From Candidatus Helarchaeota ASGARD archaeon Hel_GB_B (GTDB lineage Archaea > Asgardarchaeota > Lokiarchaeia > Helarchaeales > HEL-GB-B): a stretch of 20,000 bases of DNA. The stretch is from positions 1 to 20,000 of the forward strand of contig SUPR01000067.1 of the NCBI GenBank assembly GCA_005191425.1, in the 5' to 3' direction. Made by a program: the position numbers and the translations under genes. Positions 13,445 through 16,346 of the stretch are shown here, piece after piece. The notes under the pieces are model-generated. The model was given only the letters and a program-made list of their open reading frames with translations, was not told where the DNA came from and searched no databases. Positions within the stretch are counted from its first letter, which is position 1; every line of letters begins with the position of its first letter.

Positions 13445-14509
13445 TTAATATTTGCCAAATTTTTTTCCAAATTTAACCATTAATCCTATTTGCGATAAAG
13501 TAACAGATTTTGGAAAATTATGTTGGTTCATTAAAATATACATGGATTTAGTCAGTTTATTAGTACCTGCATCAATTGCCTTTTTAACCTCCTTTTTTAC
13601 GGTATTCGGAGACCAATCGCCAAATTCAATATTGTTTAAATTTCCCATTAATACCAATTTTTCATTTGCTAGTTTTTTACAAATTGTTAAGTCATCGTTA
13701 CTGCTTAAGGTAGTTGCTGATACTCCAGACCTAATTATCTCACTTATTATACCTTGAACTTCTCCTCCAGCACTTCCTAAAATAATTGGTGCTTTAATAT
13801 TCGACGTAAGTTTATTATAAATTGGTATTACATATTTAGAAAATATATCTTTCGGTAGGACGGTGGTCGAAACAACGCCATCGACCATGAAAATCATATC
13901 GACCCCTAATTCTATTTGAATATTAGCCCAGTCAATGACGTATGGAATAATTTTTTCGATCACTTTTTGAAATTTTTGGGGCTCGATTAATAAAGATTCA
14001 AGCCATTTTGAGAGAGTAAAAAAGAATACAGGTAATGAAAAAGGGCCAGTTAATACTCCTATTATAGGTACTTTACCTTTTATTTCGCTTTTTGTAAATA
14101 ATTTGATAGTCTTTTTTGGTTCTTCATATGCTTTTGCTGAATTTACATCTGGAATTTCTATATTTAAAATATCATCTAATTGAGTAAATGGAATTGATTT
14201 TAAATTTGGATCGCCATCTACATAGAAAATTGGTTCTGCACCCCAAGGTTCTGCATCTTTTACCAAGTAAAAAAATGAAGTAACAAAGTCGTGCCCAATT
14301 AATTTTTGGAACTTAACTTGTCCATTAAAAATAAATTCACCCTTTTGATATAAACTCGGGAGATCAATATTTAATAATTCTGCTGATATACTTGTAGTTA
14401 AAGGAAATACTGGTACTCTATCTGGGATTTCTCCCGAAATAGTTGCAAATACTCTATCTAATGCAGTCATATCTTCAGAATTATTAATAGTTCTATATTT
14501 TGAGCCCAT
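13445..14509 (-). CDS. Uroporphyrinogen decarboxylase / MtaA-CmuA family protein lacking canonical Zn ligands
   Basis: Overall UroD/MT2 pattern: DRVPVFP, AEPWGAE, PIIGVLTGPFS, GVDMIFMVD and LMGNLN. The H-x-C site reads GSA and the distal GC site reads QHN. There is no RQAGR motif. Confidence 0.85.
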   Translation of the reverse strand: MGSKYRTINNSEDMTALDRVFATISGEIPDRVPVFPLTTSISAELLNIDLPSLYQKGEFIFNGQVKFQKLIGHDFVTSFFYLVKDAEPWGAEPIFYVDGDPNLKSIPFTQLDDILNIEIPDVNSAKAYEEPKKTIKLFTKSEIKGKVPIIGVLTGPFSLPVFFFTLSKWLESLLIEPQKFQKVIEKIIPYVIDWANIQIELGVDMIFMVDGVVSTTVLPKDIFSKYVIPIYNKLTSNIKAPIILGSAGGEVQGIISEIIRSGVSATTLSSNDDLTICKKLANEKLVLMGNLNNIEFGDWSPNTVKKEVKKAIDAGTNKLTKSMYILMNQHNFPKSVTLSQIGLMVKFGKKFGKY

Positions 14510-14541
14510 AAATGATCATATCCTAAAAAATCAATATTATA

Positions 14542-15189
14542 TTATTTTTTTTCTAAAATTGACAATATTTCATTTATATTATTAGTCATATAATCGACTT
14601 TTAATTTTTTATAAAGTTTAGAATTATAATTGAATGGTGCACCACCGCACATTACTTTAATATCTTTTCTTATTCTCTTTTTCAATTCATTTCTTATGTT
14701 TTTTATACCTAATGCGGAATTATACATCATAGCACTTACTAAAATCCAATGTGCACCTTCTTTAATAGCTGTTTCAACAAATTTAGAAGCAGGGACGTTC
14801 AGCCCTAGATCGATAACTTGGTATCCATTTGCTTGTAAAACCACTTTTAAAATCTCTTTTCCCAAGCCATGATAATCTTGAAAGATATTTCCAATGATTA
14901 TTTTTTTCTTTTGAATAGAATTCTTAATTTCCTTTTTTAAAAAAGGTTCAAGTATTTTTATAGCGTCACTTGCAATCTTAGCAGCAGCCAAAACTTGAAA
15001 GGCAGATACATTTTGATATCCTTTTTCATCAAATGTTTGAATATTATTTAAAGTCTGGGCAATTACTTTTACCAAAATTTCTTGTGCCGAAAAATTATTA
15101 ACATTATTATTTATAATTTCTAATGAACTTTTATATTCCCTCATTTTTGTTAAATTGAAAAATTTTTGATATAGTTCGTCAATTTCCAT
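14542..15189 (-). CDS. Cobalamin-binding (corrinoid) protein, MtaC/MtbC-like
   Basis: An N-terminal helical cap, then DYHGLG (D-x-H-x-x-G, 14860-14877), VIDLGLNVP, VSAMM and MCGGAP. Confidence 0.92.
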   Translation of the reverse strand: MEIDELYQKFFNLTKMREYKSSLEIINNNVNNFSAQEILVKVIAQTLNNIQTFDEKGYQNVSAFQVLAAAKIASDAIKILEPFLKKEIKNSIQKKKIIIGNIFQDYHGLGKEILKVVLQANGYQVIDLGLNVPASKFVETAIKEGAHWILVSAMMYNSALGIKNIRNELKKRIRKDIKVMCGGAPFNYNSKLYKKLKVDYMTNNINEILSILEKK

Positions 15190-15213
15190 TTTATTTTACC
15201 ATTAGATTTTTTA

Positions 15214-15546
15214 TCAAGTGTTAATAAATTGAAATATTGCAGATACTCCATCATTAATTATCATTTTATTAATAATCTGATCCGTAGTAAATTTTATAAC
15301 AAGTATATTCCCATTATTTAAAAAAAATTTTAATAATTTATTTCCATTATGTATTTCCAATTCCTGACATTCAATGTCAAAACCAATATTATTTAATGCT
15401 GTTTCTATTGACCGAAAAATCTTGTTCATTTCTTTATGCTCAAAATTTGAAAATTTAACTTTATTACCGTTATAAACAGCAATTTTTTCTATTTCAATAA
15501 TATTTGAAATTTGTTTAATTGCGTCTTTAAAACTTTTTACTATCAT
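15214..15546 (-). CDS. Roadblock/LAMTOR-like protein (110 aa)
   Basis: The apparent pattern is helix-strand-strand-helix-strand-strand-strand-helix, the roadblock topology. A GGAG RBS lies upstream and the gene sits tightly within the operon. The fold is inferred by eye. Confidence 0.55.
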   Translation of the reverse strand: MIVKSFKDAIKQISNIIEIEKIAVYNGNKVKFSNFEHKEMNKIFRSIETALNNIGFDIECQELEIHNGNKLLKFFLNNGNILVIKFTTDQIINKMIINDGVSAIFQFINT

Positions 15547-15566
15547 TTAATTAATACTCCTATTTT

Positions 15567-16346
15567 TTATATTTTTATAAAAGCATTTTTAATTGAATTA
15601 TAATCCAACCCAATTATTCCTAAGTAAAAATCTTTTATCTGTTTAATACCCAAATAAAATTTCCTTGATTTGATAATAAAATGTAAATTTTGGCTTTTTA
15701 ATAAGATTTTACCGATTGAAGTAAGTATTTGTCCCAAATTTAAAATAGTGCGCCTATAATATGGAGAACTAATATATACTTGAAGTTCATAGTCTTTTAA
15801 ATTATTATTTAATTCTGTTTGAATTACATTGTCTTCATAGATATATGATATTGCCAATAATTGCTTGTCCTCAAATAATCTATTTTTTAACTGATTGTCC
15901 AGCTTATAAATTAATTTATTTGGAGTTAACAGATATTTTTTCGAGAAATCTTGAATTTCATTCTTTAATTGTTCAATAAATGGCTCGAAAATTGAAGTAT
16001 TATGGTCCCACTTTATAATAACTTCTTCGGAATATCTTTCTAAAAATTTTGAATTTATTTTATCAAGAAATTTCGATAAGATTTGTAATGGAATTTCTGA
16101 TTCATGAATTGCAATAATATAAAAGGCTGGGTTTTTACAATAATATGATATCGTAAATTTCGATAAATTAATTGACCTAATTTCCCCAAATTCATCTAAT
16201 TCATATGAAAAAGATTTTATTGCTTCTAAAAATGATGAAATTATGTCTGATTTATCTCCTAATCCTATTAATGAAAAAAGGAGAATTCCACCTTGTTTAA
16301 TAAACATTATATCTTTGATTTTTTTAATTTCAAAATCCATTTTCAT
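15567..16346 (-). CDS. Longin-like domain fused to a C-terminal roadblock-like domain
   Basis: The N-terminal ~135 aa fit the Asgard longin pattern (IMFIKQGGILLF…IISSFLEAIKSFSYEL…GEIRSI…KFLERY…W…SIFEPF). The C-terminal part has an alpha/beta roadblock-like periodicity. RBS AAGGA. Confidence 0.65.
   Translation of the reverse strand: MKMDFEIKKIKDIMFIKQGGILLFSLIGLGDKSDIISSFLEAIKSFSYELDEFGEIRSINLSKFTISYYCKNPAFYIIAIHESEIPLQILSKFLDKINSKFLERYSEEVIIKWDHNTSIFEPFIEQLKNEIQDFSKKYLLTPNKLIYKLDNQLKNRLFEDKQLLAISYIYEDNVIQTELNNNLKDYELQVYISSPYYRRTILNLGQILTSIGKILLKSQNLHFIIKSRKFYLGIKQIKDFYLGIIGLDYNSIKNAFIKI

Follow-up and report, generated by a model that had tools for sequence, protein, structure and literature searches.

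Results

A four-gene cassette in a Helarchaeota genome

The 20,000-nucleotide stretch of DNA analysed here (the window) comprises positions 1 to 20,000 of contig SUPR01000067.1 of Candidatus Helarchaeota archaeon Hel_GB_B (assembly GCA_005191425.1; contig C148 in our numbering). The assembly is a metagenome-assembled genome (MAG) of 3.54 Mb that is 93.7% complete, and its nearest named relatives are MAGs of 'Candidatus Helarchaeota' and 'Lokiarchaeota'. Within the window lies a cassette of four minus-strand open reading frames (ORFs), all in the same direction and separated by intergenic gaps of 20, 24 and 32 nt, in which two proteins of predicted longin and roadblock fold (P0001 and P0002) are followed by a corrinoid protein (P0003) and a protein of the UroD/MtaA fold (P0004). 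The ORF coordinates agree in this respect with a first-pass annotation, which had been made from the sequence alone. We propose, with a probability of about one half, that the cassette is a corrinoid-based sensor with a longin/roadblock transducer, rather than a metabolic enzyme. Its features are as follows.

15567..16346, minus strand: P0001, 259 aa, predicted two-domain longin and roadblock protein ('LonRB'), Mon1/Ccz1-like (AlphaFold2 and Foldseek)
15930..16319, minus strand: predicted longin domain of P0001, residues 10-139 (DSSP of the model; Pfam Longin sub-threshold)
15573..15914, minus strand: predicted roadblock-type domain of P0001, residues 145-258 (DSSP of the model; PDB structure matches)
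15214..15546, minus strand: P0002, 110 aa, predicted stand-alone roadblock/LC7 fold ('RB'; AlphaFold2 and Foldseek)
14542..15189, minus strand: P0003, 215 aa, corrinoid (B12)-binding protein (Pfam PF02310)
13445..14509, minus strand: P0004, 354 aa, UroD/MtaA fold without the MtaA zinc site (Pfam URO-D)
16347..16622, no strand: AT-rich spacer separating the cassette from a divergently oriented rubredoxin-like gene, presumed to be the operon promoter region

Shine-Dalgarno-like GGAG/AGGA motifs lie just 5' of the second and fourth genes, and a terminator scan of the cassette detected no intrinsic-terminator-like site within the four-gene block. The promoter scan used a bacterial sigma-70 model and is uninformative for an archaeal host.

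Longin and roadblock folds of P0001 and P0002

The AlphaFold2 (AF2) model of P0001, built from 29 family members, has a predicted local distance difference test (pLDDT) score of 87.3. DSSP assigns a longin topology (bb-a-bbb-a-a) to residues 10-139 of this model and a roadblock topology (a-bb-a-bbb-a) to residues 145-258. The best PDB matches returned by Foldseek are Mon1, Ccz1, HPS1/HPS4 (BLOC-3) and Fuzzy/Inturned, with E values of 1e-8 to 1e-5, and lower ranks are taken by the TRAPP longin subunits Bet5/Trs23, adaptor protein (AP) sigma subunits and the roadblock proteins 9jue, 3kye and 7f8m. The Pfam Longin profile (PF13774) stays below its gathering score on P0001 (E 3e-4, 21 bits versus 26.2). 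The model of P0002, built from 8 orthologues with a pLDDT of 89.5, shows the topology a-bb-a-bbb-a, and all 50 of the PDB matches listed by Foldseek are roadblock/LC7 proteins (LAMTOR subunits, dynein LC7, Thorarchaeota and MK-D1 roadblock proteins, MglB). A structure search of the ESM Atlas is concordant for both folds, and the Atlas neighbours of P0001 include longin-Arf/Ras clusters. By these models, P0001 is a longin-roadblock protein and P0002 a roadblock protein, so that AF2 and Foldseek, rather than Pfam, uphold what had been read from the sequence for the 259-aa and 110-aa products.

P0002 has no Pfam match of any kind, Robl_LC7 (PF03259) matches neither P0001 nor P0002, and the 17 PF03259 matches of the genome exclude the cassette locus. 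In a profile search of 5.8 billion proteins the P0002 family amounted to 7 clusters, all of them cassette-derived; there being no wider sequence family, its fold assignment had to rest on AF2. An exhaustive HMMER profile search found full-length LonRB proteins essentially only in the two types of cassette described below, and the longin domain of P0001 taken alone belongs to a large Asgard-wide paralogue family.

Like Mon1-Ccz1, Fuzzy-Inturned and BLOC-3, P0001 is predicted to have tandem longin-type domains and would be expected to have a heterodimeric partner. Unlike the subunits of these tri-longin Rab guanine nucleotide exchange factors (GEFs), it has two domains, in 259 aa, instead of three; its presumptive partner is a single roadblock domain, sequence homology and a linked Rab-like GTPase are not detectable, and a corrinoid pair is encoded in the operon. 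P0002 and the second domain of P0001 in turn share the predicted a-bb-a-bbb-a fold with MglB of MglB-MglA, with Ragulator (LAMTOR2-5) and with the Asgard roadblock structures 7f8m/7yh1, and the cassette differs from these roadblock/LC7 platforms in the absence of a Pfam Robl_LC7 match and of an adjacent MglA-like GTPase.

A corrinoid protein paired with a UroD-fold protein devoid of the zinc site

P0003 matches the Pfam B12-binding profile PF02310 with an E value of 1.3e-21, which bears out its initial description as a corrinoid protein. Its B12 domain is Rossmann-like and is joined to a helical cap. The DxHxxG motif reads DYHGLG (residues 105-110), with D105, H107 and G110 invariant across the family; P0003 is a His-on corrinoid protein. 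Its solved sequence relatives are the B12 domain of MetH, MttC and MtmC, and it scores below the curated cut-offs of TIGR02370 (98.4 versus 215.3 bits), MtbC (90.9 versus 350) and MtaC (54.7 versus 420). The corrinoid proteins of five cassettes in related genomes (loci L036, L037, L041, L044 and L045) end in a basic aromatic tail, R-K-x-I-F-R-F-F-R-R, that is absent from P0003 and from the proteins of L038 and L039 and that may be a docking or membrane-binding peptide.

P0004 matches Pfam URO-D with an E value of 1.1e-42 and can be aligned to MtaA (4ay7) over residues 11-320. The LHIC-G segment of MtaA, which we take to contribute two of the zinc ligands of a His-x-Cys ... Cys site, reads LGSAGG in P0004. 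None of the aligned members of this UroD family has a Cys in the zinc-site columns, and the only Cys in the whole of P0004 (Cys277) is unconserved. Given this family-wide loss of the zinc site, P0004 is not a coenzyme M (CoM) or other zinc-dependent thiol methyltransferase. The MtaA/UroD fold of the earlier description is retained, but P0004 is not the MtaA-type second methyltransferase (MT2) of a corrinoid system. Assignment as an MtaA/CmuA-type MT2 was rejected because the zinc ligands are gone and the scores are low (TIGR01463, 102.8 versus 235.4 bits; MtaA, 95.2 versus 400); MtbA was rejected with a score far under the cut-off of its curated model, and HemE with 46.9 bits against an equivalog cut-off of 302.95. 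Residues that are invariant across the whole UroD clade occur in the motifs DRVP, PFSLP and GNLNN.

The cassette thus resembles the corrinoid methyltransferase systems of methanogens and acetogens (MtaC with MtaA; MtbC and MttC; the corrinoid proteins of O-demethylases) in combining a cap and B12 domain bearing DxHxxG with a UroD-fold TIM-barrel partner. It departs from them in that the zinc ligands are missing, the NCBIfam scores lie far under the MtaA/CmuA and corrinoid cut-offs, the operon holds no partner of the MT1 (first, substrate-specific methyltransferase) or MT2 type and no RamA, and the clade is coupled to signalling or longin/roadblock proteins. UroD and B12 domains are also fused into single proteins in Helarchaeota (P0012) and in bacteria (P0021 and P0029), which argues that proteins of the P0003 and P0004 types act as a physical pair.

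The cassette is conserved in two gene orders

The four-gene arrangement, first noticed at this single locus, proved to be conserved: of about 16 Lokiarchaeia/Helarchaeales lineages examined, 14 have the complete set of four next to one another, in either of two orders. Type 1, LonRB-RB-B12-UroD, is found in the window, in a locus 97% identical to it (L004), in L036, L037 and L038 (the last from a Lokiarchaeota MAG) and in genome G128, the locus of which is the same as L034, L039 and L040. Type 2 runs B12-UroD-LonRB (241-260 aa) and ends with a small RB-like protein (104-113 aa); it is found at L041, L044/G211, L045, G162, G163, G169, G156, G274, G132 and the P0060 locus. Type 1 cassettes are flanked by genes of at least three unrelated contexts, namely redox defence, an FtsZ/DUF1847/histone gene setting and an HflX-like/VWA/HGSNAT setting. 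Among 400 Asgard species representatives, 12, all of one class, have a protein of the P0004 clade, and LonRB adjoins it in 9 of the 12; where the protein is at least 34% identical to P0004, LonRB is adjacent in 9 of 9. The recurrence of the same four genes side by side in many diverged relatives argues that the arrangement is not due to chance.

Three loci show local variation. L037 (2811-5258) has a tandem duplication of LonRB-RB (258 and 109 aa, then 257 and 119 aa) before a single B12-UroD pair. At L034 (10561-11730; G128) the genes for an HflX-like GTPase and a VWA protein are divergent from the cassette; the HflX-like protein is the only GTPase encoded beside any cassette and is not a Ras-type switch. 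At L003 (3531-4805; G126) a gene for a B12-binding radical S-adenosylmethionine (SAM) protein follows LonRB-RB after a gap of 340 nt. The presence of this second, different B12-domain protein in the same position may be a coincidence, and the 214-aa gene behind it, considered as a candidate corrinoid protein, encodes a membrane protein.

Related B12-UroD pairs adjoin signalling genes

The nearest homologues of P0004 outside Asgard archaea are 33-36% identical and lie in B12-UroD-histidine kinase arrays with overlapping reading frames. A survey of genomes, one per species, yielded 260 tblastn-confirmed loci, and nearly all of the best 80 of these 260 consist of a B12 gene (~215 aa), a UroD gene (~350 aa) and then a large gene on the same strand. 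By Pfam, the genes directly downstream of UroD (n=55) encode DUF1638 (41), HATPase_c (35), HisKA (29), GGDEF (10), Response_reg (7) and SpoIIE (1), and stop/start overlap between UroD and the downstream signalling gene is frequent. The first-pass annotation had placed such a corrinoid/UroD pair beside bacterial histidine kinases and GGDEF proteins, and this is borne out: the closest relatives of the pair outside Asgard archaea stand directly upstream of DUF1638-histidine kinase and GGDEF genes. In five Desulfobacterota/Nitrospirota loci (L055, L079, L093, L097 and L098) UroD is followed by a protein of 214-277 aa with a GAF-like region and no Pfam match; this family shares a region with the DUF1638-kinases and has a coiled coil and the C-terminal Cys-rich motif L-P-I-C-x-x-C-K-K-I-R-D-D-x-G-Y-W. 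The Chloroflexota pairs have very large multi-GAF/PAS proteins and a GAF-PAS-cyclase as neighbours. The B12-UroD-DUF1638 arrangement, in its kinase version, is present in cultured Geomonas limicola Red745, Desulfonema magnum 4be13, Zoogloea oleivorans Buc and Allochromatium palmeri DSM 15591. B12-UroD pairs are therefore a widespread family that is usually coupled to signalling or regulatory proteins in bacteria and in other archaea. At one bacterial pair (L042) a 259-aa gene without a Pfam match was considered as a relative of P0001 and turned out to encode an unrelated membrane protein.

Maximum-likelihood analysis of 93 UroD proteins sets the genome's other 11 paralogues apart (support 99) from an 82-member group that includes P0004. 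This group comprises 5 Chloroflexota proteins, 8 LonRB-linked Asgard proteins (Shimodaira-Hasegawa-like approximate likelihood ratio test, SH-aLRT, 98) and a 69-member clade (support 96), which is mostly signalling-linked. Asgard genomes of the same class also carry versions of the pair with signalling proteins: G150 and G275 have B12-UroD-DUF1638-HisKA-HATPase_c, and G136 has B12-UroD-PAS. Since same-class genomes carry the kinase version, the LonRB/RB pair and the DUF1638-kinase hold equivalent positions. DUF1638 was not found in the genome of the window at its 93.7% completeness, and LonRB and RB sit in that place. The cassette hence shares with the DUF1638-kinase/cyclase modules the B12 and UroD families, the tight order of B12 before UroD and the archaeal class, and differs from them in using LonRB and RB where those have DUF1638 fused to HisKA/HATPase_c or GGDEF.

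Corrinoid and GTPase genes elsewhere in the genome

As described at the outset for the window, it contains no MT1 of the MttB/MtaB type, no RamA and no small GTPase gene. Elsewhere in the genome we found one RamA-like gene, two MtrH genes, 12 URO-D genes, several of them with an adjacent corrinoid protein gene, and about 9 corrinoid-protein-like genes, which for a non-methanogen is a sizeable repertoire for corrinoid methyl transfer. An MttB-type MT1 was not found anywhere in the genome. UroD-fold enzymes can also act as MT1, and hence the absence of MT1 is unsafe as an argument.

The genome has 43 Ras-family matches. On contig C131 (21456-22346; L002), a 296-aa open frame contains a close paralogue of the P0001 longin domain as well as one of these Ras-family matches (21609-21953) and may thus encode a longin-GTPase fusion. 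This putative fusion and the longin-Arf/Ras clusters of the Atlas tie the longin family of P0001 to GTPases.

Two further loci bring together genes of these kinds. On C161 (14031-15690; L141), a UroD paralogue that falls outside the P0004 group, and at which the contig ends, is directly followed by a 147-aa longin-like protein and a TrkA-like gene; this is a second UroD/longin adjacency in the genome. On C116 (18440-22187; L140), genes for a roadblock protein, a MetOD1-like protein, a 250-aa longin-family protein and a 138-aa protein form an operon that is convergent with a corrinoid protein gene (B12-binding_2 and B12-binding) and a YdjM-like gene.

Discussion

How might a corrinoid pair communicate with longin and roadblock proteins? 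We envision an input module composed of the corrinoid protein P0003 and the zinc-less UroD/MtaA-fold protein P0004, whereby P0004 would transfer a methyl group between a small molecule and the cobalt of P0003, or would otherwise set the state of the cobalt. The signal might be a methyl donor or acceptor, the redox state of the cobalt or oxygen, or B12 itself. The Co(I), Co(II) or methyl-Co(III) state of P0003, or its conformation, might then alter its binding to a platform formed by a presumptive dimer of P0001 and P0002, and this platform would act on a protein whose gene lies outside the cassette, most probably one of the many small GTPases of the genome. P0001 and P0002 would stand in for the DUF1638 output protein in one Lokiarchaeia/Helarchaeales group. 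Longin domains fused to two-component signalling domains have been reported in a survey of Asgard genomes (bioRxiv 10.1101/2020.10.19.343400), which makes the swap of a kinase for a longin/roadblock transducer plausible.

Complex prediction gave P0003 with P0001 and P0002 a score of 0.39, against 0.00 for the best of 3 controls; at least 70% of the contacts agree between runs, the pLDDT of the partner is at least 73, and the outcome counts as weak support. In the calibration, 58 of 80 solved complexes and 2 of 110 mismatched pairs attained the mark; with a score of 0.60 or less, only 7 of the 80 solved complexes did so, as did both of the mismatches that passed. Passes of this kind are wrong in the majority of cases, except where the pairing was already probable on other grounds. 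The predicted contact of P0003 with P0001 and P0002 is thus suggestive at most.

Several observations weigh against a sensor. The label itself is drawn entirely from gene neighbourhood. Comparison by hhalign detected no homology of LonRB to the DUF1638-kinase proteins (probability 0.1), and the bacterial DUF1638 domain may service the cofactor rather than read it. A small GTPase gene adjoins the cassette in none of the loci examined; for strain MK-D1 it has been noted that roadblock and longin genes do not, as a rule, share operons with small GTPase genes (PMC10933270). Two lineages, G126/L003 and L139, keep LonRB-RB without an adjacent B12-UroD pair, and G126 (93% complete) has no P0004 homologue at E <= 1e-45, from which it follows that the pairing is not obligate. 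Finally, catalytic corrinoid machinery is abundant in the genome, and with RamA and MtrH encoded elsewhere in it a catalytic role of the pair is possible.

This last point leads to an alternative that we consider unlikely, namely that P0003 and P0004 are a working methyltransferase that feeds MtrH and tetrahydromethanopterin (H4MPT) after activation by the RamA-like protein, with P0001 and P0002 as assembly, scaffold or cofactor-repair helpers, in the part that stand-alone DUF1638 is suspected of playing for split MetH. Such an enzyme would be at home among the genome's 12 URO-D genes, several with corrinoid neighbours, its RamA-like gene and its two MtrH genes, and the clade-wide invariance of DRVP, PFSLP and GNLNN suggests a conserved active site. 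In Phaeobacter, moreover, DUF1638 is required for B12-dependent methionine synthesis with a split MetH, the only phenotype published for the domain and one for which the authors proposed no mechanism; the domain co-occurs with RamA-like proteins, and a relation to B12 reactivation has been suspected (PMC5764234); a further source bearing on DUF1638 is PMC12478193. Yet the P0004 clade stands apart from the genomic paralogues and beside pairs whose partners, by fusion or coupling, are kinases, cyclases and PAS/GAF proteins, an MT2, RamA or transporter gene is linked in none of the about 16 cassette loci, and we know of no cofactor-repair role of longin/roadblock proteins.

It is also conceivable, and in our estimation quite improbable, that the corrinoid protein is itself the switch. 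Its B12 domain would dock on the platform in the place of a G domain, the state of the cobalt would replace the state of a nucleotide, and the output would consist in the binding of an effector or in localisation. The absence of a linked GTPase at every locus would be accounted for in this way, the predicted complex (0.39 versus 0.00 for the control) would be its physical basis, and the basic tail of several cassette corrinoid proteins could dock on a partner or a membrane. However, the prediction is weak by its own calibration, the P0003 of the window has no such tail, and 43 Ras-family matches are available as clients in the genome; to our knowledge, no client other than a GTPase has been described for such a longin/roadblock dimer. 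That two unrelated pairs merely travel together, LonRB-RB as a GTPase regulator and B12-UroD as a separate enzyme or sensor, would agree with the solitary LonRB-RB of G126/L003 and L139 and with the behaviour of the pairs as blocks in both gene orders, but is very improbable given that LonRB is adjacent in all 9 Asgard representatives with a close P0004-clade protein (at least 34% identity), that the adjacency outlasts the change of gene order and many different flanks, and that the full-length LonRB family is essentially confined to cassettes.

Returning to the proposal of a corrinoid-based sensor, precedents may be sought among regulators of two kinds. In CarH/LitR and AerR/PpaA a B12-binding domain serves regulation instead of catalysis, in light or redox sensors that are joined to or act on a DNA-binding protein. 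These have no methyltransferase-fold partner, unlike the cassette with its P0004, and CarH matches P0003 only with an E value of 0.014. A light sensor based on photolabile methyl-cobalamin was set aside by inference, as most of the hosts are anaerobes of dark sediments. In the SAMTOR-GATOR1/KICSTOR-Rag pathway, a methyltransferase-fold protein, SAMTOR, binds SAM and reports methyl-donor status to longin-domain regulators of GTPases. The analogy with the cassette is one of concept, for which we claim no homology, and SAMTOR has no corrinoid. Following this analogy, the cassette might be a prokaryotic forerunner of eukaryote-style nutrient sensing, in which a corrinoid/UroD sensor of methyl, one-carbon or redox status reports directly to a Mon1/Ccz1-like platform, an idea that we regard as doubtful.

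Asgard genomes encode dozens of longin, roadblock and small GTPase proteins, almost none of which can be connected with a particular input, partner or function, and their genes are rarely found in informative operons (PMC10933270). The cassette is a rare case of a longin/roadblock pair locked to a chemically defined corrinoid partner, and the presence of a kinase in the equivalent position of relatives provides a testable hypothesis for the function of eukaryote-signature proteins in an archaeon. If the idea of a forerunner of nutrient sensing is correct, a ligand-to-platform input would for the first time be known for an Asgard longin/roadblock protein, and the switch docking there might be a corrinoid protein instead of a GTPase. 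A widespread input module in bacteria would come to light as well: the B12-UroD-DUF1638 combination has the appearance of a sensory input, so far undescribed, to two-component and cyclic di-GMP (c-di-GMP) signalling, and may account for the unexplained DUF1638 phenotype with split methionine synthase. Literature searches, whose coverage excluded most subscription journals and therefore leaves novelty unproven, returned no description of the Asgard cassette or of the bacterial module. As far as we have found, all of the domains are known and their combination is new, as a variant of B12-based regulation and of longin/roadblock platforms.

Genes flanking the cassette

A 39-aa rubredoxin-like gene with two CxxC pairs (16623-16742, plus strand) is divergent from the cassette, and a small rubredoxin-like gene (Pfam RUBY_RBDX) is found at the equivalent spot in L004 and L036. 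The window also carries redox-defence genes at 2263-5003 and 9181-13315, encoding SufB/D-like, SufC, rubrerythrin, flavodiiron, NADH:rubredoxin oxidoreductase-like (NROR) and acyl-CoA dehydrogenase proteins, a neighbourhood that is largely syntenic with L003, L036 and L038. Independently, OsmC, glutaredoxin and FMN reductase genes adjoin the cassette of L041. Redox or oxygen sensing is a weak lead from the position of the cassette among rubredoxin, flavodiiron, NROR, rubrerythrin, OsmC and glutaredoxin genes in several loci, three of which share ancestry.

On the other side of the rubredoxin-like gene, a tetratricopeptide repeat (TPR) protein with a SNAP-like match (17676-18662, plus strand) lies beside the gene for a profilin-like protein of 123 aa (18692-19063, minus strand; Pfam Profilin E 2.3e-4, under the cut-off). 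These are further genes of eukaryote-signature type near the cassette.

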